A stretch of DNA of 10,867 nucleotides from a virus (taxonomy: Duplodnaviria; Heunggongvirae; Uroviricota; Caudoviricetes). The stretch covers positions 1 through 10,867 of IMG/VR virus record IMGVR_UViG_2537561979_000004. The stretch is one strand, 5' to 3'. The translations under genes were made by a program, and so were the position numbers. Positions 1-9,206 of this stretch are shown here, piece by piece; the stretch's first letter is position 1; every line of letters starts with the position of its first letter. The notes under the pieces were generated by a model, which worked only from the letters and a program-made list of their open reading frames with translations, made no database searches and was not told the DNA's origin.

Positions 1-441
1 GAAGGCTGGCTGTATCTGGCAGTGGTCATTGACCTGTGGTCACGTGCCGTTATTGGCTGGTCAATGTCGCCACGCATGACGGCGCAACTGGCCTGCGATG
101 CCCTGCAGATGGCGCTGTGGCGGCGTAAGAGGCCCCGGAACGTTATCGTTCACACGGACCGTGGAGGCCAGTACTGTTCAGCAGATTATCAGGCGCAACT
201 GAAGCGGCATAATCTGCGTGGAAGTATGAGCGCAAAAGGTTGCTGCTACGATAATGCCTGCGTGGAAAGCTTCTTTCATTCGCTGAAAGTGGAATGTATC
301 CATGGAGAACACTTTATCAGCCGGGAAATAATGCGGGCAACGGTGTTTAATTATATCGAATGTGATTACAATCGGTGGCGGCGGCACAGTTGGTGTGGCG
401 GCCTCAGTCCGGAACAATTTGAAAACCAGAACCTCGCTTAG
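1..441 (+). CDS. insF: IS3 transposase OrfB (DDE integrase domain), C-terminal part; 5' end truncated by the window edge
   Basis: Open frame from position 1 ([20 protein letters not shown]...) to TAG at 439-441. Contains the HTDRGGQY and CYDNA motifs typical of IS3-family DDE transposases. Confidence 0.85.
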
Positions 442-682: not shown

Positions 683-1000
683 CTACGGCAGTGCTGGCCA
701 TTCAATATCCTGTGCAGTTGACGTATCAACACGGTTCAGCAACACCCGATACTTCTTCCAGGCTTCCACCACCAGCACGACAAGATGCCGCATACAGTGA
801 CCCAGTCAGTCCAGTTTCCAGACAACCAGTGCGTCACCTTTTTGAAGGCGCTTTAAAGCACGTTTTAATCCAGGTCGGCCTGTCCTTATTCCGCTTAATT
901 TATCTTCAAATATTTGTTCACATCCTGCACAAACAAGAGCGTTTCGTTGCAGGTCTGTATTCTGGTCATTTGTTGATACCCTTACATAGCCAATCAGCAC
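683..1000 (-). pseudogene. pin: Pin-type serine DNA invertase N-terminal remnant (GTG start at 1000; MLIGYVRVSTNDQNTDLQRNAL...) interrupted by an in-frame TGA at 806-808, then reading into a tail-fibre-assembly C-terminal peptide ([27 protein letters not shown])
   Basis: Minus-strand translation gives about 65 residues of a Gin/Pin/Hin-type catalytic N-terminus including the Ser nucleophile motif YVRVST. After the stop the same frame shows pin-like [12 protein letters not shown], then a conserved Tfa C-terminal motif. The expected invertase C-terminal HTH is absent on this strand. Confidence 0.7.
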
Positions 1001-1054
1001 GCTGAATCTCCCGTCCAAAAGCACAAATCATGCCATGCAGGCCAGAAACCGCCA

Positions 1055-2737: not shown

Positions 2738-4195
2738 TTAGGAGCGCCAAAAAAAACCTGAAAACAATATAATAACAGGATAAATTTCAAGGCGACCAAG
2801 AATCATAGCTATGCACATTAAACATTTTGCAATGTCATTAAGCACTCCGAATGACGATGCAGTAGCCCCAAAACCTAATCCCATATTATTAATACATGCA
2901 GCCACTGTTGCAAATGATGTAAGAAAATCATATCCCATACCATTTAACACCAGTATAAAAAACACCGTGAAGAGAGTATAAAGAAAAAAGAAACTCCATA
3001 CAGACCTCATTACACGATCTGTAACTATCTTCCCTCCTACATTTACACTCAACAACGCTCTGGGATGAGAAAGCTGATTTATCTCGTGTTTGCTTTGTTT
3101 GAAAAGTATAAGAAATCGAAGTGACTTAATTCCACCACAAGTTGAACCTATACATCCCCCAAAGAAACTTGACAACAGCAAAAACACTATCGTGTGCGTG
3201 GGCCAACTTGCATAATCCTGCGTAGCTAAACCATTATCAGTGAGCATGGAGCTGGCAAGAAAAAACGAATGAATAAAACTTCCATGCAAGTCATACATAC
3301 CTATATGCCAGACCTGGAAAGAGGTAACAATGATCACCCCTAAGGCTATTAACAGAAAGAAACGAAGTTCAATATCTCTGATTAAAGGTTTTATCGTTTT
3401 CCTGCTAATAACAATATACCAAAGAGTGAAGTTGAAAGCCGATAGCAGGGAAAAAGAACCAGCCACCAGCTCAACCAAATAGTTATTAAAATATCCGATA
3501 CTCTCGCTATGAGTTGAGAAACCACCAAGCGAAACTGTGGAAATCCCGTGACAAATAGCATCAAACAAAGGCATTCCTGCAAGTCTATAACAGACAATAC
3601 AAGCAATACCTAATAAAGAATAAGTTATCCACAGTGTCCGTGACGTATCGGCCAGGCGGGGAGTGAGTTTGTCATCCTTAAATGGCCCCGGCATTTCTGA
3701 CTGATAAAGCTTTGCACCACCAATACCCAATAATGGCAATACTGCAACCGCCAGAACAATAACTCCTAAACCACCTATAAAATTTAACTGTGACCGATAG
3801 TACAAATATGCCCGAGGTAATGAACTAACATCATCAATTACAGTTGCTCCTGTTGTTGTTATTCCAGAAACCCCTTCAAACAGAGCATCAATGAACCTTA
3901 AATTAAGTTCTGAGTCAATCCATAAAGGGAATGCACTAATAACAGAAAACAAAATCCAAAACATTACAATTATAATAAACCCATCACGGGTACGTAATTG
4001 AATGCCAGATTTCTTAGTTGTATACCACGCTCCGCCACCAATGCAAAAAAATATAACGAAAGTTATAAAGAAAACGAACAGGATTTTTTCTTTATAAAAC
4101 AATGCTACAACCATTGGTGGCAACATTGAAAGACTATAGAGCCAAACCAAGAACCCACACATATGAGTAACAACTCTTACATGAGATGTATTCAT
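2738..4195 (-). CDS. trkG: TrkH/TrkG-family potassium uptake membrane protein (Rac-prophage TrkG type)
   Basis: Long polytopic membrane ORF that matches K-12 TrkG from MNTSHVRVVTHMCGFLVWLY... onward as I recall it. AT-rich composition typical of prophage cargo. An alternative TTG start at 4213 has a better Shine-Dalgarno (AAGGTGG, 6-nt spacing) than the ATG at 4195. Confidence 0.85.
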   Translation of the reverse strand: MNTSHVRVVTHMCGFLVWLYSLSMLPPMVVALFYKEKILFVFFITFVIFFCIGGGAWYTTKKSGIQLRTRDGFIIIVMFWILFSVISAFPLWIDSELNLRFIDALFEGVSGITTTGATVIDDVSSLPRAYLYYRSQLNFIGGLGVIVLAVAVLPLLGIGGAKLYQSEMPGPFKDDKLTPRLADTSRTLWITYSLLGIACIVCYRLAGMPLFDAICHGISTVSLGGFSTHSESIGYFNNYLVELVAGSFSLLSAFNFTLWYIVISRKTIKPLIRDIELRFFLLIALGVIIVTSFQVWHIGMYDLHGSFIHSFFLASSMLTDNGLATQDYASWPTHTIVFLLLSSFFGGCIGSTCGGIKSLRFLILFKQSKHEINQLSHPRALLSVNVGGKIVTDRVMRSVWSFFFLYTLFTVFFILVLNGMGYDFLTSFATVAACINNMGLGFGATASSFGVLNDIAKCLMCIAMILGRLEIYPVIILFSGFFWRS

Positions 4196-4332
4196 ATCTA
4201 AATATTCTTTCAATTATAACCACCTTGCTGCAATATTATGATTATACTGTATAAAATTTAACTCCTCTTAGATCTTACTTCACTGTTCCTTATGAAACAA
4301 TCATCAAAATGAATCATATTGTAGTTAAGATT

Positions 4333-4797
4333 TTACTTTAAACACTGCTCGGTTATGTATTGCTGAGCACCTTCAAGTTGGGCCTGCATCATTACCAGTC
4401 GTTCCCGGAGGGTGAAATAATCCCGTTCAGCGGTGTCTGCCAGTCGGGGGGAGGCTGCATTATCCACGCCGGAGGCGGTGGTGGCTTCACGCACTGACTG
4501 ACAGACTGCTTTGATGTGCAACCGACGACGACCAGCGGCAACATCATCACGCAGAGCATCATTTTCAGCTTTCGCATCAGCTAACTCCTTCGTGTATTTT
4601 GCATCGAGCGCAGCAACATCACGCTGACGCATCTGCATGTCAGTAATTGCCGCGTTCGCCAGCTTCAGTTCTCTGGCATTTTTGTCGCGCTGGGCTTTGT
4701 AGGTAATGGCGTTATCACGGTAATGATTAACAGCCCATGACAGGCAGACGATGATGCAGATAACCAGAGCGGAGATAATCGCGGTTACTCTGTTCAT
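4333..4797 (-). CDS. Rz: Rz i-spanin (lambda Rz-like)
   Basis: [55 protein letters not shown]... closely resembles lambda Rz. Its ATG overlaps the R stop as ATGA (4797-4794). Confidence 0.85.
4392..4577 (-). CDS. Rz1: Rz1 o-spanin lipoprotein embedded in the +1 frame of Rz
   Basis: [52 protein letters not shown]...: lipobox VVGC and a proline-rich stretch, fully nested within Rz as in lambda. Confidence 0.8.
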
Positions 4798-5291
4798 TGC
4801 TGACCCCACAAACAGATTTCACGCTCAATCTCACGACGAGTCATGAGACCTTTCCATTGCTTACCGCCAGCATATGTCCAGCGACGTAGCTGATCACATG
4901 CGCCTTTGATATCGCCCTGGTTTATTTTGCGAAGAAGCGTCGATGTTCTGAAATTGCCAGCACCCACGTTGTAAACGAATGAGTAAAGAGCGCCGCGCGT
5001 TGTTTCCGGTATATCGACTTTGATGTACGGGTTAATTTGTCTGGCGACCGTGGCAAGGTCTTTATTCAAGAGTGTTTTGCATTCTGCTTTGGTATACGTT
5101 TTACCGAGCATGATGTCTTTTCCTGTATGCCCGTGACATACAGTCCATACACCAACAATATCTTTGTATGGTATGTAGCTGACACCTTCCAGACCATCGT
5201 TACCACTTGGGCCAGTGATTAACACTGATGCTATAGCAATTGCTCCGCCACCAATAGCAGCAGCAACGACTTTTCGTAATGATGGAGGCAT
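4794..5291 (-). CDS. R: Phage-21-type SAR endolysin (lysozyme R with N-terminal signal-anchor-release domain)
   Basis: [59 protein letters not shown]...: Gly/Ala-rich N-terminal hydrophobic SAR segment followed by a lysozyme catalytic region. The start overlaps the S stop (TAATG). Confidence 0.85.
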
Positions 5292-5506
5292 TATTCACCT
5301 CTCGCAGCCTTGCGCTTATCTTCTTTAATCTTGAAATAAAGGTTTGTCAGGTACGTCAGCAGGCCAAATACCAGACTACCCAGCACACCGATTGCAGCCC
5401 ACTGTGACGGAGTTACTCTATCGAGCAACTGTAAAAACCAGTAGCCAGCACTGCCTGCGGAGGTGCCGTAGGCAATGCCTGTTGAAATTTTGTCCATGGA
5501 TTTCAT
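5291..5506 (-). CDS. S: Phage-21-type pinholin S with dual-start motif (M-K-S-M)
   Basis: From the ATG at 5506: [71 protein letters not shown] (71 aa, two TM segments, charged C-terminus), preceded by GGAGG. The longer upstream ORF start at 5563 was not used. Confidence 0.8.
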
Positions 5507-5605
5507 AGCCTCACCTCCGCACGGAACGGATGGCATAGTTATTATGTGTAGGCTTTCAGACACATCAATCAGAGCCTTAATTGATATATATGCTGGAGAC
5601 GATGC

Positions 5606-5632
5606 AATATAAAAAGCTCGCCGTAGCGAGCT
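5606..5632 (-). terminator. Rho-independent terminator between the lipoprotein cargo and the S gene
   Basis: Perfect hairpin AGCTCGC-tacg-GCGAGCT (5615-5632 on plus coordinates), followed on the minus strand by TTTTTATATT. Confidence 0.55.
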
Positions 5633-5757
5633 AATAAAATGTATTTCTCTGATATTATGTTTATTTGTATTAGCTCAGACTTGACATCACAGGTTTCGTA
5701 TATAGAACATCATCAAATCTGTCAGTTTGCTATGAATGAGATATAGTAATTGAAGAG

Positions 5758-6153
5758 CTAACCTCGCATGTCAAAGCCAGATTTCTGAAAATCTCTGTAG
5801 ACTTCCGGATTGTTGAAGGCCGGAAATTTGGCTTTATGAGCTGCGGACTTTATCGCTTCGCAATAGGCTTTATCACCGTTACTGGTAGATATTTTTAACG
5901 CCGTGCCATCCTGAGAGAATTCCATATGCAACCTGCATTTTTTCCCTTTCCAGTTATGCGGCTCATCAAGTTTGGCATTAATTGCAGCTCTGATTCCCCG
6001 CGCTTGCGCCCCCCATTCATCCTGATCATCCCAGCGTCCTGAACTGCAACTACCTGTAGCAGTAGTTTTGTGGCAATCTGAAGGGTGTAAAGGTGTGCAT
6101 CCCGCAACAAAACCGACCCAAAAAGTCAACATAACGATTTTCTTTAATCCCAC
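5758..6153 (-). CDS. Lipoprotein with divergent TolA domain-III-like C-terminal module (cargo gene 1)
   Basis: GTG start with GAGGAG upstream. Signal peptide MGLKKIVMLTFWVGFVAGC with lipobox Cys. The C-terminal ~80 aa (...GKKCRLHMEFSQDGTALKISTSNGDKAYCEAIKSAAHKAKFPAFNNPEVYRDFQ...) shares the conserved pattern of the TolA C-terminal domain at lower identity. Confidence 0.7.
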   Translation of the reverse strand: MGLKKIVMLTFWVGFVAGCTPLHPSDCHKTTATGSCSSGRWDDQDEWGAQARGIRAAINAKLDEPHNWKGKKCRLHMEFSQDGTALKISTSNGDKAYCEAIKSAAHKAKFPAFNNPEVYRDFQKSGFDMRG

Positions 6154-6303
6154 TTCTTGCTCCTCAATCCATTAAAATCTCAGCAATAGTAGTTGTTACG
6201 TCCGCCACTGGCTCAGAGCTGACTATCCGCTAAATTTAGCTCAGTGCCGTAGCTGTGTCAGAACAAACCTAAGCCGAAACCGTTTATTACAAAACAATAA
6301 ATA

Positions 6304-6732
6304 TCAGGGTTTAAAATCCAGCACCCCATTTTGAAATACTTTATATACTTCCGGCGAAGGGGGGGCAGGTATATCAGCATTCTTTATCGCATTCATCGCT
6401 TCACGACATAAATCGAGGTCTCCACTTTCTCTTTTAACCTCCAGTAGAAGGCCATTCGGGGCCATATGCATTCTCAGTGTACACTCTTTTCCTGAATACT
6501 TACTCGCATCCCCGAACTGTTTTTCGATGGCGCTCTTGATTTGATGGGCATACAGACGGATATCCTCACTAACATCAGAAGTACGTTCAGATAAACTCAC
6601 ATACTGTGTCTCTATTGCTTTATCGGAGTAATATGATGTACGGTCATGATAATTTGTCGATACAGCATCAGTGCACCCGATAATAATCCCACTAATAATC
6701 AACGTAAGAATTGATGCGCTACGAAAACCCAT
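6304..6732 (-). CDS. Lipoprotein with TolA domain-III-like C-terminal module (cargo gene 2)
   Basis: ATG with GAGG upstream. Signal peptide MGFRSASILTLIISGIIIGC (lipobox). The C-terminal ~85 aa (IRLYAHQIKSAIEKQFGDASKYSGKECTLRMHMAPNGLLLEVKRESGDLDLCREAMNAIKNADIPAPPSPEVYKVFQNGVLDFKP) aligns closely with the TolA C-terminus as I recall it (...QIKSAIESKFYDASSYAGKTCTLRIKLAPDGMLLDIKPEGGDPALCQAALAAAKLAKIPKPPSQAVYEVFKNAPLDFKP). Confidence 0.75.
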   Translation of the reverse strand: MGFRSASILTLIISGIIIGCTDAVSTNYHDRTSYYSDKAIETQYVSLSERTSDVSEDIRLYAHQIKSAIEKQFGDASKYSGKECTLRMHMAPNGLLLEVKRESGDLDLCREAMNAIKNADIPAPPSPEVYKVFQNGVLDFKP

Positions 6733-6761
6733 TTTTCCTCACATATGTCATATAGTAAAGG

Positions 6762-6791
6762 ATTATATATACCGTTGTTTTGGACGCTCAA
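6762..6791 (-). promoter_or_regulatory. Candidate sigma70 promoter for lipoprotein gene 2 (-35 TTGAGC at 6786-6791, 18-bp spacer, -10 TATAAT at 6762-6767)
   Basis: Hexamers read on the minus strand about 30 nt upstream of the ATG at 6732. Not experimentally defined. Confidence 0.4.
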
Positions 6792-6895
6792 ACAGCGAAT
6801 CAGATCAAATAAAACGCACATTTGTTAACATTTACACAAAGTCTGCGTGGGATATTCTGAAAGAATATCCATAATGTGGAGAGAATCTATTGAAG

Positions 6896-7000
6896 TGCAT
6901 GGTGCCGGGTGCCTCCCGGTGAACAAAATGTTCGTGATACCTGTCGGCGACAGAAAAGGTTAATGGTATCACCCCACCGCACAGGGGGATTCACCATGCA
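6896..7000. repeat. 105-bp nested dyad-symmetry element (outer 9-bp inverted repeat enclosing four hairpins)
   Basis: Outer TGCATGGTG (6896-6904) / CACCATGCA (6992-7000). Inner hairpins: CCGGG-tgcct-CCCGG (6905-6919), GAACA-aaa-TGTTC (6921-6933), GTGATACC...GGTATCAC (6934-6972) enclosing the palindrome CTGTCG-g-CGACAG (6941-6953), and CCCC-n8-GGGG (6972-6987). Confidence 0.5.
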
Positions 7001-7320
7001 GGAGTTTTCTTAGCAAACTCACTGCGCGCCCGGCAACTCCCAACCACATAAAATGCGGAGTTTGTGGTATTTATGCATATAACTCGCAGGAATTATCTTA
7101 AAAAACTGATGTCGATCCGGATTAAAAAGAAGCAGGTCATCATCAGATGACTGGAAAAAAGGAAAACAAAAAATACTCATCATACAGTTTTGATTGCAGG
7201 GATGAGCCTGCTATGCACAATATGCAGAATATAAGCAAGATAAAAATATGCAGGCATATTATTTCGGATTTTGTTATTAACACAACCTTTTTAATAATCA
7301 TTTGGCATACAATAAACCAG

Positions 7321-7349
7321 CCCAAAAAGAACCGCCTAAACAGGCGGTT
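7321..7349 (-). terminator. Rho-independent terminator (candidate tR'-like) in the Q-to-cargo intergenic region
   Basis: Hairpin AACCGCCT-aaac-AGGCGGTT (7330-7349), followed on the minus strand by CTTTTTGGG. Confidence 0.5.
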
Positions 7350-7594
7350 GGTCAATACAAAGGATGCTTCGTCTTTATTATAGTAATCTGAGGCGTCGGG
7401 TGTCTTGTATCAGACAACATATTGTCCCGCTAAACAGCGAATTACAAACCACCCTGCAATGATCTCTCATCTCATTTTATATGAGTTGACGACATCAGGA
7501 TAACGCATCATCAGCCCCTGCCAAGAAATATCAAAACTCCCGCCAGCAATGTGTTATCACAATATTGTAAAAAAAACACAGCACCGAAACTATA

Positions 7595-7632
7595 ACTGGT
7601 CTCTGTTATAATTTGGAGCAGAAAGACCAGTT
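7595..7632 (+). promoter_or_regulatory. Extended -10 promoter-like element (TGTTATAAT, 7604-7612) flanked by an 8-bp inverted repeat ACTGGTCT / AGACCAGT
   Basis: TGn-TATAAT on the plus strand, antisense to the late operon. Inverted repeat arms at 7595-7602 and 7625-7632. Confidence 0.3.
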
Positions 7633-7665
7633 GCCCAACTAGCAGCATTCTCCCCTGCTTTCCTG

Positions 7666-7700
7666 ACGTAAAAAAACCGCATTAAGCGGTTTTTTTACGT
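7666..7700. terminator. 35-bp perfect palindrome ACGT-A7-CCGC-ATTAA-GCGG-T7-ACGT; bidirectional intrinsic terminator about 80 bp downstream of the Q-like gene
   Basis: Perfect dyad seen directly in the sequence. The A-tract/U-tract architecture is typical of bidirectional terminators. Confidence 0.6.
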
Positions 7701-7777
7701 ATGTCCATGTCTGCAATCCGCCTCGCGATACAGCTTTGCGAAGCATAGCAAAATTGAAGCAGTTTATACGTAAGAAA

Positions 7778-8320
7778 TCAAGCCATTTTCTCAGCAAATG
7801 ATTCACGCATGGGAATATATAGGGCATACTCAGCAACAGCTAACCAATTAGCAATCCGTTTTTCGCATGTGCTAAAACACCACTCTGGGTGTGCATCATT
7901 TAGCAATTCAGCCATTTTGCGCTTAGTCATCCCCCGCCCTTCATAGCGTTGCCGGAGAATGCAAATCAATCCTGGATGCTCTGCCAGCACCTCACTTATG
8001 ACTCGATCAATACATAACGCCTCTGCATCAGTACAATGCGCCAGCCAGCTCTTTTGCTTGCCGTTGATCATCTCTCGCAAAAACGCTTCCAGCTCAGCTT
8101 TCTCTATTCCCGCTTTTTTCATTCTGCGCAGGGCTTCATTAATGGCTGTTTTCGTCAGTTTTTTGGATGCCAACAACTGATTGAACATATTCCCTGACCT
8201 GCCACCGCCAATATACGACCAGCGCCCCCACATACGTAGTTTTCCCTGAATCCAGACACTTTCCAGCGTGGTGAGGCGAAGGTGTTCTCCGCTTTTTCCT
8301 GTATTCGTTGGGTAAATCAT
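7778..8320 (-). CDS. Putative late-gene antiterminator Q-like protein (family assignment tentative)
   Basis: 180-aa ORF translationally coupled to the upstream gene (ATGA overlap at 8317-8320). It is the last gene of the nin-like block before the lysis cassette, the canonical position of Q. Sequence family not verified. Confidence 0.5.
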   Translation of the reverse strand: MIYPTNTGKSGEHLRLTTLESVWIQGKLRMWGRWSYIGGGRSGNMFNQLLASKKLTKTAINEALRRMKKAGIEKAELEAFLREMINGKQKSWLAHCTDAEALCIDRVISEVLAEHPGLICILRQRYEGRGMTKRKMAELLNDAHPEWCFSTCEKRIANWLAVAEYALYIPMRESFAEKMA

Positions 8321-8607
8321 AAATGACCTTTCTTTCTCCAGATTTCTTGTGTGCGAAAAACCCCTTCAGCATGCATCAGGCGCAATTCTTCTTTGGTGTA
8401 ATCGCTGGTTTTTACCCGCCCGTCGATTAGATCGTGGCATGAGCTACAGGCTATCGCCGCCTGCATATCGTGTGGTTTTGTCGCTGTTCCGCACGTCCCC
8501 GCCAGCCTGTAATGCGCCAGCACAGAGGTTTCGGGATTGTGATTGCAGTAGCCAGGGATTCTGATCTGGCACATCTGGCCTTTAGCCGCTTTACGTAAAT
8601 TCACCAT
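8317..8607 (-). CDS. Small Cys-rich phage nin-region protein (DUF1364 / YbcO-like, putative zinc-binding)
   Basis: 96-aa ORF MVNLRKAAKGQMCQIRIPGYCNHNPETSVLAHYR...CSSCHDLIDGR with four or more Cys in two clusters. TAATG overlap with the upstream gene. Family recalled from memory. Confidence 0.5.
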   Translation of the reverse strand: MVNLRKAAKGQMCQIRIPGYCNHNPETSVLAHYRLAGTCGTATKPHDMQAAIACSSCHDLIDGRVKTSDYTKEELRLMHAEGVFRTQEIWRKKGHL

Positions 8608-9206
8608 TACGCAAACTCCAGTAGTTGTGCGGCCACATTTTCAACTTCCTCCTGAGAGGAGAATTTACGAAACAGAATCCAGTTCCACAGCACATTCAGT
8701 ACAGATTTATAAACCTGCTGAAACTCGACTTCGTCCATATTCGCAAAAGCGATGGATTTTGCCCGACGCCCACGGCTACCGTCCGGATAAATATGCTCGG
8801 TGTAAAATCCGGCCTGAATGGTTACCCACTCGCGGAAAGCCTCAAACGACTTTAGCAACGCCGTATCCCGGGTTCTACGAGTCGCAACGGTGTTAAGGTA
8901 TTGCTCTGCGGCATCACTCAGGGCTGGCGTGTGTTCCCGACCAACTGATTCGCACAGGTAATCAACGAAACCAGACAGCAGTTCTCGTTCGCGAGGCGTG
9001 ATCGCCCCACCGACCGGAGTCCAGTAATCGAATCCCAGTTGCAGGAGTTTGAAAAAACGCTTGTGGAATGCGTAGTTACGCACACGCTTAAAGTCTGCGT
9101 GTATCCACTCACCTATTTTGATTTGATGCAGAAAATCGCAACTCTCCGGCGTCGCCGGGAGAAGTAAACCAGAAGAAGTTTGTTTGACCAGTTGTATATG
9201 CGCCAT
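8607..9206 (-). CDS. Phage nin-region protein (DUF1367-like, resembles Rac YdaW-type proteins)
   Basis: 199-aa ORF, first gene of the coupled three-gene block, with a candidate promoter upstream. Family by recollection and context only. Confidence 0.45.
   Translation of the reverse strand: MAHIQLVKQTSSGLLLPATPESCDFLHQIKIGEWIHADFKRVRNYAFHKRFFKLLQLGFDYWTPVGGAITPRERELLSGFVDYLCESVGREHTPALSDAAEQYLNTVATRRTRDTALLKSFEAFREWVTIQAGFYTEHIYPDGSRGRRAKSIAFANMDEVEFQQVYKSVLNVLWNWILFRKFSSQEEVENVAAQLLEFA

Follow-up and report, generated by a model that had tools for sequence, protein, structure and literature searches.

The window analysed here, the whole stretch of 10,867 nucleotides (nt), comes from IMG/VR virus record IMGVR_UViG_2537561979_000004 (Caudoviricetes). 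Its minus strand carries two tandem genes for small putative lipoproteins, gene 2 and, downstream of it, gene 1, in the slot between a Q-like late antiterminator candidate and the holin gene (Table 1). About 1 kb without long open reading frames (ORFs) separates the Q-like gene from the pair. The element that hosts both genes is a defective Rac-type lambdoid prophage of E. coli. Each gene product combines a predicted lipoprotein signal peptide with a C-terminal domain that matches domain III of TolA (TolA III).

A sequence-only reading of this DNA had recognised the lipoprotein signals and a TolA III module in both ORFs, close to TolA in gene 2 and divergent in gene 1, and had named profile or structure searches as the way to check the module; both kinds of search agreed with it. 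Pfam PF06519 matched gene 1 at 54.6 bits (1.3e-14) and gene 2 at 82.2 bits (3.3e-23), against a gathering cut-off of 25, and phmmer searches against TolA III in the PDB gave 5e-09 and 6e-28, respectively. Identity to E. coli TolA residues 334-421 is 33.8% for gene 1 and 60.5% for gene 2, the disulfide cysteines C363 and C388 are aligned and kept in both proteins, and the gene 2 product ends in LDFKP. AlphaFold2 modelled residues 39-131 of gene 1 and 52-142 of gene 2 with a predicted local distance difference test score of ~90, with the signal peptides and linkers disordered. Foldseek searches of the PDB with these models returned TolA III for all top entries (3qdp, 2x9a_B, 3qdr and 1tol). The gene 2 model matched with an E-value of 2.5e-12 and a root-mean-square deviation of 0.7 Å (to 2x9a_B and 1tol), and the gene 1 model with 5e-09 and 1.1 Å (to 3qdp); the target-normalised template modelling scores were 0.93 and 0.92, respectively.

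Neither protein is TolA proper. Both lack TolA domains I and II, the genes lie outside the ybgC-tolQRA-tolB-pal-cpoB operon, and their matches to the full-length TolA model cover only model positions ~270-387, in the case of gene 2 about the last 90. The NF007065 model for TolA proper was not reached (gene 1, 53.7; gene 2, 107.5; cut-off 213). Gene 2 passes the laxer cut-off of TIGR02794 (74.4 against 59.45), which is why NCBI/RefSeq names it TolA. PHROGs places both proteins in phrog_5772, annotated as being of unknown function. A search with the gene 2 domain alone for its closest genuine TolA returned family members only; the tool depends on shared exact words.

Gene 2 starts with ATG behind a GAGGA Shine-Dalgarno sequence (6736-6740, minus strand) that is conserved in an alignment of the upstream region. 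For gene 1, we favour a GTG start at 6151-6153, spaced 6 nt from a GAGGAG Shine-Dalgarno sequence (6160-6165, minus strand), because plasmid homologues carry ATG at the equivalent codon; this longer form provides the Lys-Lys n-region of the signal peptide. RefSeq, through its annotation pipeline PGAP, starts gene 1 at the internal ATG 6130-6132, which yields 124 amino acids (aa) and removes the positively charged start of the signal peptide. On plasmids, the gene 1-type gene has been annotated in an over-extended form of 143 aa. Both N-termini satisfy a PROSITE PS51257-type lipobox rule: gene 1 reads ...FVAGC with Cys19 and gene 2 ...IIIGC with Cys20, corresponding to the VAGC and IIGC boxes of the sequence-only reading. 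Each has Thr at +2, and neither has Asp there. The residue at +2 directs lipoprotein sorting in E. coli, and Thr at this position predicts that both proteins are sorted to the outer membrane.

Between signal peptide and fold the two proteins differ in build. Gene 2 has a disordered linker of ~32 aa followed by the TolA III-like fold (residues 55-142), and gene 1 an acidic, Trp-rich linker with a conserved Cys-x8-Cys motif (residues 20-45) followed by a divergent TolA III-like fold (residues 46-131). The gene 1 linker, C-TPLHPSD-C-HKTTATGS-C-SSGRWDDQDEWG, is modelled with low AlphaFold confidence, and its Cys-x8-Cys pair recurs in distant cluster representatives. The SSGRWDDQDEWG motif was also considered as a colicin TolB box (DG[S/T]GWSSE...W; PMC2821528) and rejected as evidence, since the key Asp/Trp/Glu register is mismatched; the loose resemblance is retained as a lead.

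The published complexes of TolA III define the surfaces that matter for ligand binding. The N1 domain of filamentous-phage g3p (g3p-N1), colicin N and the TolB N-terminus each add a strand to β3 of TolA III (A415-K420) (PMC4339652; PMC3365938; PMC7391070), and exchange of TolA D418 or K420 for proline abolishes all three of these interactions (PMC4339652). Colicin A adds its strand to β2 (375-LLDIKP-380), mostly via backbone hydrogen bonds (PMC3365938), and such bonds are the main contact of the strands with g3p, colicin N, TolB and colicin A alike (PMC4339652; PMC3365938). Along β3 (TolA 412-421, FKNAPLDFKP), gene 2 reads FQNGVLDFKP, with 7 of 10 residues identical, and gene 1 FQKSGFDMRG, with 2 of 10. 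The colicin A box in β2 (LLDIKP in TolA) is LLEVKR in gene 2, a conservative change, and ALKIST in gene 1, while the g3p-contacting helix (TolA 334-349) keeps 11 of its 16 residues in gene 2 and 3 in gene 1. Compared in this way, gene 2 has the look of a TolA III faithfully copied from E. coli. Gene 1 is a member of a more divergent family, conserved across genera and equipped with an extra Cys-loop linker, that may be tuned to a different ligand.

Substitution rates place both families under purifying selection, and both genes are kept as functional ones. For the whole of gene 1, compared with its plasmid and chromosomal homologues, the ratio of nonsynonymous to synonymous substitution rates (dN/dS) was 0.06-0.12 at a synonymous rate (dS) of 0.5-1.1. 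The gene 1 linker (residues 20-45) gave a dN/dS of 0.02-0.10, its dS (0.7-2.1, or saturated) being not reliably estimable over 26 codons. In gene 2, dN/dS was 0.09-0.37 for the domain (dS 0.2-0.5) and 0.36-0.59 for the linker (dS 0.1-0.8). We also observed that the linker of gene 1 is more conserved than its TolA III domain.

Comparison with other loci indicates that gene 1 and gene 2 are independently mobile cassettes, joined only in this Rac-type prophage. In prophage L014, which carries a 90%-identical gene 2 variant, homology to the window extends from the gene 2 stop codon (window 6303), where it breaks off, to ~375 nt upstream, and resumes in the Q region. In this prophage and in those with 67% variants, gene 2 stands alone between an antiterminator, either of the DUF1133 or of the unrelated PF03589 type, and a holin that sits with lysozyme, Rz and terminase genes. 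tRNAs precede the solo variants and nanS-p-type esterase sequences follow them, as in the architecture of the Shiga toxin (stx) slot. Among IMG/VR prophage contigs, gene 1 invariably comes after the 99%-type gene 2 where the flank is present, and never after the 90% and 67% variants. Contents of the Q-to-holin slot vary among related prophages between the gene pair, gene 2 alone, and tRNAs with nanS-p; unlike these relatives, the window has no tRNA in the gap between Q and cargo according to tRNA and Rfam scans. Judged by these alignments, the cargo is a dispensable insert between late-operon genes that is variable among relatives, which is one defining trait of a lambdoid moron.

The homology of gene 1 to plasmids and chromosomes is confined to window 5755-6190, that is, the ORF and ~35 nt. 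Some 600 plasmids of E. coli and Shigella carry gene 1-type genes. On IncK2/Z and IncI-gamma/K1 plasmids the gene directly follows nikA-nikB (nikB encodes the relaxase), and no promoter-like or terminator-like site was found between nikB and it on these I-complex plasmids; on pO157-type IncF plasmids it lies between the psiAB/hok leading region and toxB. Single chromosomal copies are present in Enterobacter kobei and in Serratia marcescens, in the latter beside GmrSD and HEPN genes (L007 8957-10736), and named close homologues also come from Citrobacter, Klebsiella and Raoultella. The sequence-only reading had treated the two genes as a paralogue pair; both do carry TolA III, but they are not simply paralogues that travel together. 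Its placement of the pair in the cargo slot between Q and the holin was borne out, with the correction that the carrier is a defective prophage.

The identical segment is found in many E. coli chromosomes, flanked by ydaV/ydaW-type genes and by trkG-pinR-uspF-ompN, which marks the Rac prophage site. In K-12 MG1655 (NC_000913.3 1422752-1425239), ydaW abuts the rzpR pseudogene, followed by rzoR and trkG: the K-12 Rac prophage has lost the whole Q-to-lysozyme segment, comprising the nin-like genes, Q, both TolA-like genes, the holin and the lysozyme. The absence of both genes from K-12 is probably why they went unstudied. A 1.3-kb region covering the pair was present at ≥99% identity and ≥80% coverage in 773 of 5,426 complete E. 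coli genomes (~14%), and in one of 50,697 phage records (mEp460_ev081).

Expression signals around the pair were assessed by consensus scanning. The promoter candidate upstream of gene 2 may drive a gene 2-gene 1 bicistron, and its region travels with gene 2 in the 90% variant. The terminator-like hairpin lies ~125 nt past the gene 1 stop codon, upstream of the holin. An own promoter for gene 2 and a terminator after gene 1, as put forward in the sequence-only reading, are thus present as sites, but as consensus matches only, since the scan was not enriched over shuffled sequence (promoters, 11 against 7.3±2.5; terminators, 4 against 2.3±1.4). Upstream of gene 2, the window also contains a match to the STnc100 family. 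Copies of this element flank gene 2 variants in other lambdoid prophages (L014 6704-6877, 7599-7803 and 7854-8061; L013 4589-4802), and such repeats might mediate cargo exchange in the Q-to-holin slot or act as regulatory RNA.

Table 1. Features of the window around gene 2 and gene 1, in order of decreasing position.
Feature	Position	Strand	Basis and remarks
DUF1367 gene	8607-9206	-	Pfam
YbcO-like nuclease gene	8317-8607	-	Pfam
Q-like late antiterminator candidate (DUF1133)	7778-8320	-	DUF1133 2.5e-107; Phage_antitermQ borderline, 26.1 bits with the cut-off at 26
Possible pR'/tR' pair upstream of cargo	7330-7406	-	Candidate late promoter 7406-7377, terminator-like hairpin 7349-7330; consensus scan only
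STnc100-family repeat or small RNA element upstream of gene 2	6843-7029	-	Rfam RF02076, 86.6 bits against gathering score 47
Candidate sigma-70 promoter, gene 2	6762-6791	-	TTGAGC-18-TATAAT, 10 of 12 consensus matches
Gene 2	6304-6732	-	142 aa, TolA III-like putative lipoprotein
Gene 1	5758-6153	-	131 aa, divergent TolA III-like putative lipoprotein
Terminator-like hairpin	5615-5632	-	7-bp stem with 5 G-C pairs, then TTTTTATATTG (T-run)
P21-type holin gene (essD-like), first lysis-cassette gene downstream of cargo	5291-5506	-	Pfam Phage_holin_2_1 4.5e-35; RefSeq essD at the matching position
Lysozyme gene	4794-5291	-	Pfam Phage_lysozyme
Rz	4333-4809	-	Pfam Phage_lysis
Rz1, embedded in Rz	4392-4577	-	Pfam Rz1
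trkG	2738-4213	-	

Several further observations concern the rest of the prophage. The lysis cassette (4794-5563) resembles that of phage 21, its holin being a member of the pinholin family (Phage_holin_2_1), and the hydrophobic N-terminus of the lysozyme resembles that of a signal-anchor-release endolysin. In strain SCZE5, an IS3 element splits the lysozyme gene and the TolA-like genes are intact. At the left end of the window lie the C-terminal portion of an IS3-family transposase (22-441, plus strand), a partial, sub-threshold Rfam IS009 match (717-796, minus strand; 45.1 bits, gathering score 117) and a piece of a Pin-like DNA-invertase gene (806-1024, minus strand), which we read as decay and rearrangement at the tail-fibre end of the prophage. 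At 7615-7744, just downstream of the Q-like gene, weak isrK-like Rfam matches (~20 bits; gathering score 50), one on each strand, overlap each other and are probably due to chance, although in Salmonella Gifsy-1 IsrK lies near the antiterminator region.

To place both families in a wider context, a profile of the two was searched against 1.84 billion representative proteins, clustered at 50% identity, and found 592 clusters at E ≤1e-3. Among the best 150 of these, 93 are no longer than 170 aa, and of those 46-58, depending on the rule, have a lipobox, none with Asp at +2, which puts the number of further short TolA III lipoprotein clusters at 46-58 or more. The named family members come from Enterobacterales. 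TolA III-type genes are found on ~1,300 sequenced plasmids, including pO157 and epidemic Klebsiella plasmids; beyond the plasmids with gene 1-type genes, ~700 further records, mostly from Klebsiella, carry other TolA III lipoproteins. Some 379 Klebsiella plasmids, mostly mobilisable ColRNAI plasmids of 10-12 kb, share an identical TolA III gene, and ~300 larger Klebsiella plasmids carry a 144-aa type. In the one example of the latter that was examined, on an IncFII conjugative plasmid (L017 684-3394), the gene stands beside a thioredoxin-fold gene and near a Gabija-like gene pair, which consists of genes for an ATP-binding protein and a UvrD-helicase. The defence-gene neighbourhoods of TolA III relatives, GmrSD/HEPN and Gabija-like, are anecdotal.

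TolA III lipoproteins occur on two unrelated kinds of bacteriocin plasmid. In the one klebicin plasmid examined (K. pneumoniae NZ_CP031718.1, L016), the TolA III gene accompanies an operon of klebicin tRNase, immunity and lysis genes and encodes a 123-aa lipoprotein with lipobox LTAC and the C-terminus NAPLDFRP. Its end overlaps the gene for a secreted 121-aa TonB_C protein (Pfam 8.9e-11). This pair (L016 1512-2245, minus strand) appears to comprise the tips of both import machines and seems undescribed. A 6.4-kb plasmid of Enterobacter hormaechei encodes a colicin-like pore former with a ColA/28b-type TolB box, DGTNWSSERG, at its N-terminus, together with a lysis gene and a 140-aa TolA III lipoprotein.

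We propose that both proteins of the prophage are TolA III decoys, tethered to the outer membrane, that capture group A bacteriocins and the g3p of filamentous phages, a reading to which we give even weight for and against. Invaders normally dock on host TolA III by β-strand augmentation, g3p N1 and the colicin N T-domain at β3 and the T-domains of the colicin A type at β2. If gene 2 and gene 1 encode outer-membrane-anchored mimics of this domain acting in the periplasm, incoming ligands would reach and bind the decoy before host TolA; as the decoy would have no coupling to the TolQR motor, import would stall and the cell would be tolerant. As binding is governed by the fold and by exposed edge strands, gene 2 at least would be expected to bind TolA III ligands, and a domain of this fold is likely to bind g3p, colicin N, TolB and colicin A. 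Measured affinities for TolA III (colicin N ~1 µM; colicin A 1.3 µM; TolB 40-200 µM) favour the invaders over the host partner TolB (PMC4339652; PMC3365938; PMC7391070). Import blocking by sequestration has a precedent: g3p-N1 placed in the periplasm makes cells resistant to colicin A and lowers phage uptake by 4 logs (PMC10424213).

The genetic contexts are consistent with the decoy reading. The gene 1-type genes linked to nikB fit it because conjugative plasmids make the pili that filamentous phages exploit. Phage IF1, for instance, infects via the I pili made by I-complex plasmids. Its g3p is the ligand bound to TolA III in PDB entry 2x9a. Occurrence on bacteriocin plasmids fits as well, since such plasmids live among rival producers, and a pair of TolA and TonB tips only makes obvious sense as a means of import blocking. 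Recurrence on mobile elements, the binding strands of gene 2 and purifying selection together lend circumstantial support to the decoy idea, which the sequence-only reading had raised as a hypothesis of exclusion or colicin tolerance. The breadth of the family counts in its favour as well, and so, anecdotally, do the neighbouring defence genes. We infer from sequence and models the decoy function itself and its premises: lipidation, sorting, ligand binding, expression in the lysogen and a protective phenotype.

Several points weigh against decoys that protect a lysogen. Expression from the lysogen would depend on a consensus promoter that does not stand out statistically from background, and the position downstream of Q predicts mainly late, lytic expression, which fits lysogen protection less well. 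The carrier is a defective prophage. With 2 of 10 identities in β3, the ligand of gene 1 is not inferable from its sequence. PADLOC contains no defence-family model that matches these proteins, and full-text literature searches found no paper on these lipoproteins and no published phenotype; the apparent matches were to an author named Tolar or to chromosomal tolA. One remark that seemed to tie TolA to the ciprofloxacin-induced EDL933_2012 (PMC11125564) was discarded as expression evidence, as the annotation of this locus is that of a tail fibre gene. Binding to the TolB N-terminus is to be expected of a TolA III copy as well, which may therefore perturb Tol-Pal instead of protecting the cell. 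In 1993, Levengood-Freyermuth, Click and Webster reportedly found that periplasmic TolA III made E. coli colicin-tolerant and leaky.

This last concern leads to the main rival account, in which tethered TolA III binds the TolB N-terminus, uncouples TolB-Pal from TolA, loosens the outer membrane and increases vesicle formation. The gain would lie in freeing phage progeny or bacteriocin from the cell, or in remodelling the envelope during conjugation, rather than in import blocking. Gene 2 does keep the TolB-binding β3, where single proline changes cause a full tol phenotype (PMC4339652), and modulation of TolB interactions has been reviewed as a possible way of regulating vesicle production (PMC7391070). 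The prophage pair directly precedes the lysis cassette within the Q-dependent late region, and on bacteriocin plasmids TolA III genes are near lysis or release genes, although the Klebsiella plasmid gene is on the strand opposite the klebicin-immunity-lysis operon and its TonB C-terminal partner has no role in outer-membrane stability. The prophage, moreover, already has a full set of holin, endolysin and spanin; the affinity of TolA III for TolB is weak (40-200 µM), and single chromosomal genes of the gene 1 type are under strong purifying selection far from lysis or release functions. We consider modulation of Tol-Pal unlikely on this balance.

Lipoprotein morons with host-directed roles are known near lambdoid lysis genes, Bor being an example. 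The two proteins could likewise serve another envelope function, as a serum-resistance or host-interaction lipoprotein (lambda Bor, TraT-like) or as a conjugation accessory, reusing the TolA/TonB fold for another partner. Such a role would be most plausible for the divergent gene 1, whose highly conserved linker and diverged β2 and β3 suggest a ligand of its own and whose fixed place after nikB could reflect a transfer-related role. It is hard to reconcile with gene 2, which is 60% identical to TolA III with the ligand strands kept, unless TolA ligands are targeted, and the import machinery is indicated both by the repeated occurrence on bacteriocin plasmids and by the TonB C-terminal partner protein; we therefore think it decidedly improbable. 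We attach scarcely any credence to the notion that the genes are functionless, decaying passenger fragments of a captured tolA 3' end, for which the degraded state of the Rac-type prophage, the nearby insertion sequences and the NCBI name TolA for gene 2 might be cited. Neither ORF is broken, each is preceded by a good ribosome-binding site, and each has newly gained a lipoprotein signal peptide. The variants, at dS 0.2-1, give dN/dS values well below 1, and there are dozens of related lipoprotein clusters. The pair is likewise intact at ≥99% identity in the 773 of 5,426 complete E. coli genomes and at all IMG/VR loci with enough flank.

Extending the decoy reading beyond this prophage, we tentatively suggest, with somewhat more doubt than belief, that lipoproteins mimicking the TolA tip form a widespread import-immunity class on mobile elements. 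On Klebsiella bacteriocin plasmids their partner would be a secreted mimic of the TonB tip, and the class would make cells broadly tolerant of Tol- (and Ton-) dependent bacteriocins and of pilus-specific filamentous phages. If this holds, conjugative plasmids would make up for the exposure to phages that their pili bring, bacteriocin plasmids would gain a second line of immunity, and prophages would gain a lysogen-benefit cargo in the stx slot. A decoy of this kind, if confirmed, would represent a new defence logic, in which a periplasmic co-receptor is copied instead of a surface receptor being masked or removed. It would help to understand how conjugative plasmids cope with filamentous phages directed at their pili and how bacteriocin producers resist rival toxins beyond the reach of specific immunity proteins, and would account for a TolA-like gene in the slot that in related phages carries Shiga toxin. 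Because the genes are common (~14% of complete E. coli genomes and ~1,300 plasmids), they could affect colicin- and phage-based therapeutics and phage-display hosts. Should the proteins act on Tol-Pal instead, they would be natural tools to study how TolA is coupled to TolB and how vesicles form.

RefSeq already annotates the domain homology; the novelty lies in reading the proteins as a mobile family of lipoprotein-tethered TolA III with specific contexts. A 2025 evolutionary survey of TolA/TonB transducers leaves plasmids and prophages unmentioned and refers to lipoproteins only as other Tol-Pal components. Compared with E. coli TolA III (1TOL, 3QDP/3QDR, 2X9A, 1S62), both proteins have the same fold and disulfide cysteines, and gene 2 keeps ...LDFKP and most of the first helix. 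Unlike TolA, they are without domain I, the membrane anchor that couples to TolQR, and without the long helical domain II, having a lipoprotein signal and a short linker instead; they are encoded on mobile elements rather than in the tol-pal operon, and gene 1 adds its conserved Cys-loop linker. The engineered periplasmic TolA III fragments of 1993, which reportedly conferred tolerance to group A colicins, are the laboratory precedent for the proposed mechanism; they were artificial, soluble and over-expressed and led to leakiness, whereas the natural proteins are predicted to be lipid-anchored and are diverged and selected on mobile elements.

Cor of phages phi80 and N15, like T5 Llp, is an exclusion lipoprotein that binds FhuA and plugs this outer-membrane receptor. 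Gene 2 and gene 1 resemble Llp and Cor in being small phage-encoded lipoproteins but have no sequence relationship to them, and they would mimic a periplasmic co-receptor and titrate the invader. In a recent preprint, T5 Llp is described as a small lipoprotein of the inner leaflet of the outer membrane, proposed to stop phage and colicin entry (bioRxiv 10.64898/2026.03.26.714494). As in exclusion by filamentous-phage g3p or periplasmic g3p-N1, the block would exploit the interface of TolA III with g3p and colicins and would work by sequestration. The roles would be reversed, however: in g3p exclusion the ligand of the invader saturates host TolA, whereas here an extra receptor domain would saturate the invader. 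In their genomic setting, gene 2 variants parallel stx in Stx phages, occupying a slot ordered Q, tRNAs, cargo, nanS-p and holin, and the layout of candidate promoter, gene and candidate terminator looks moron-like, with a cargo unrelated to toxins or Bor.

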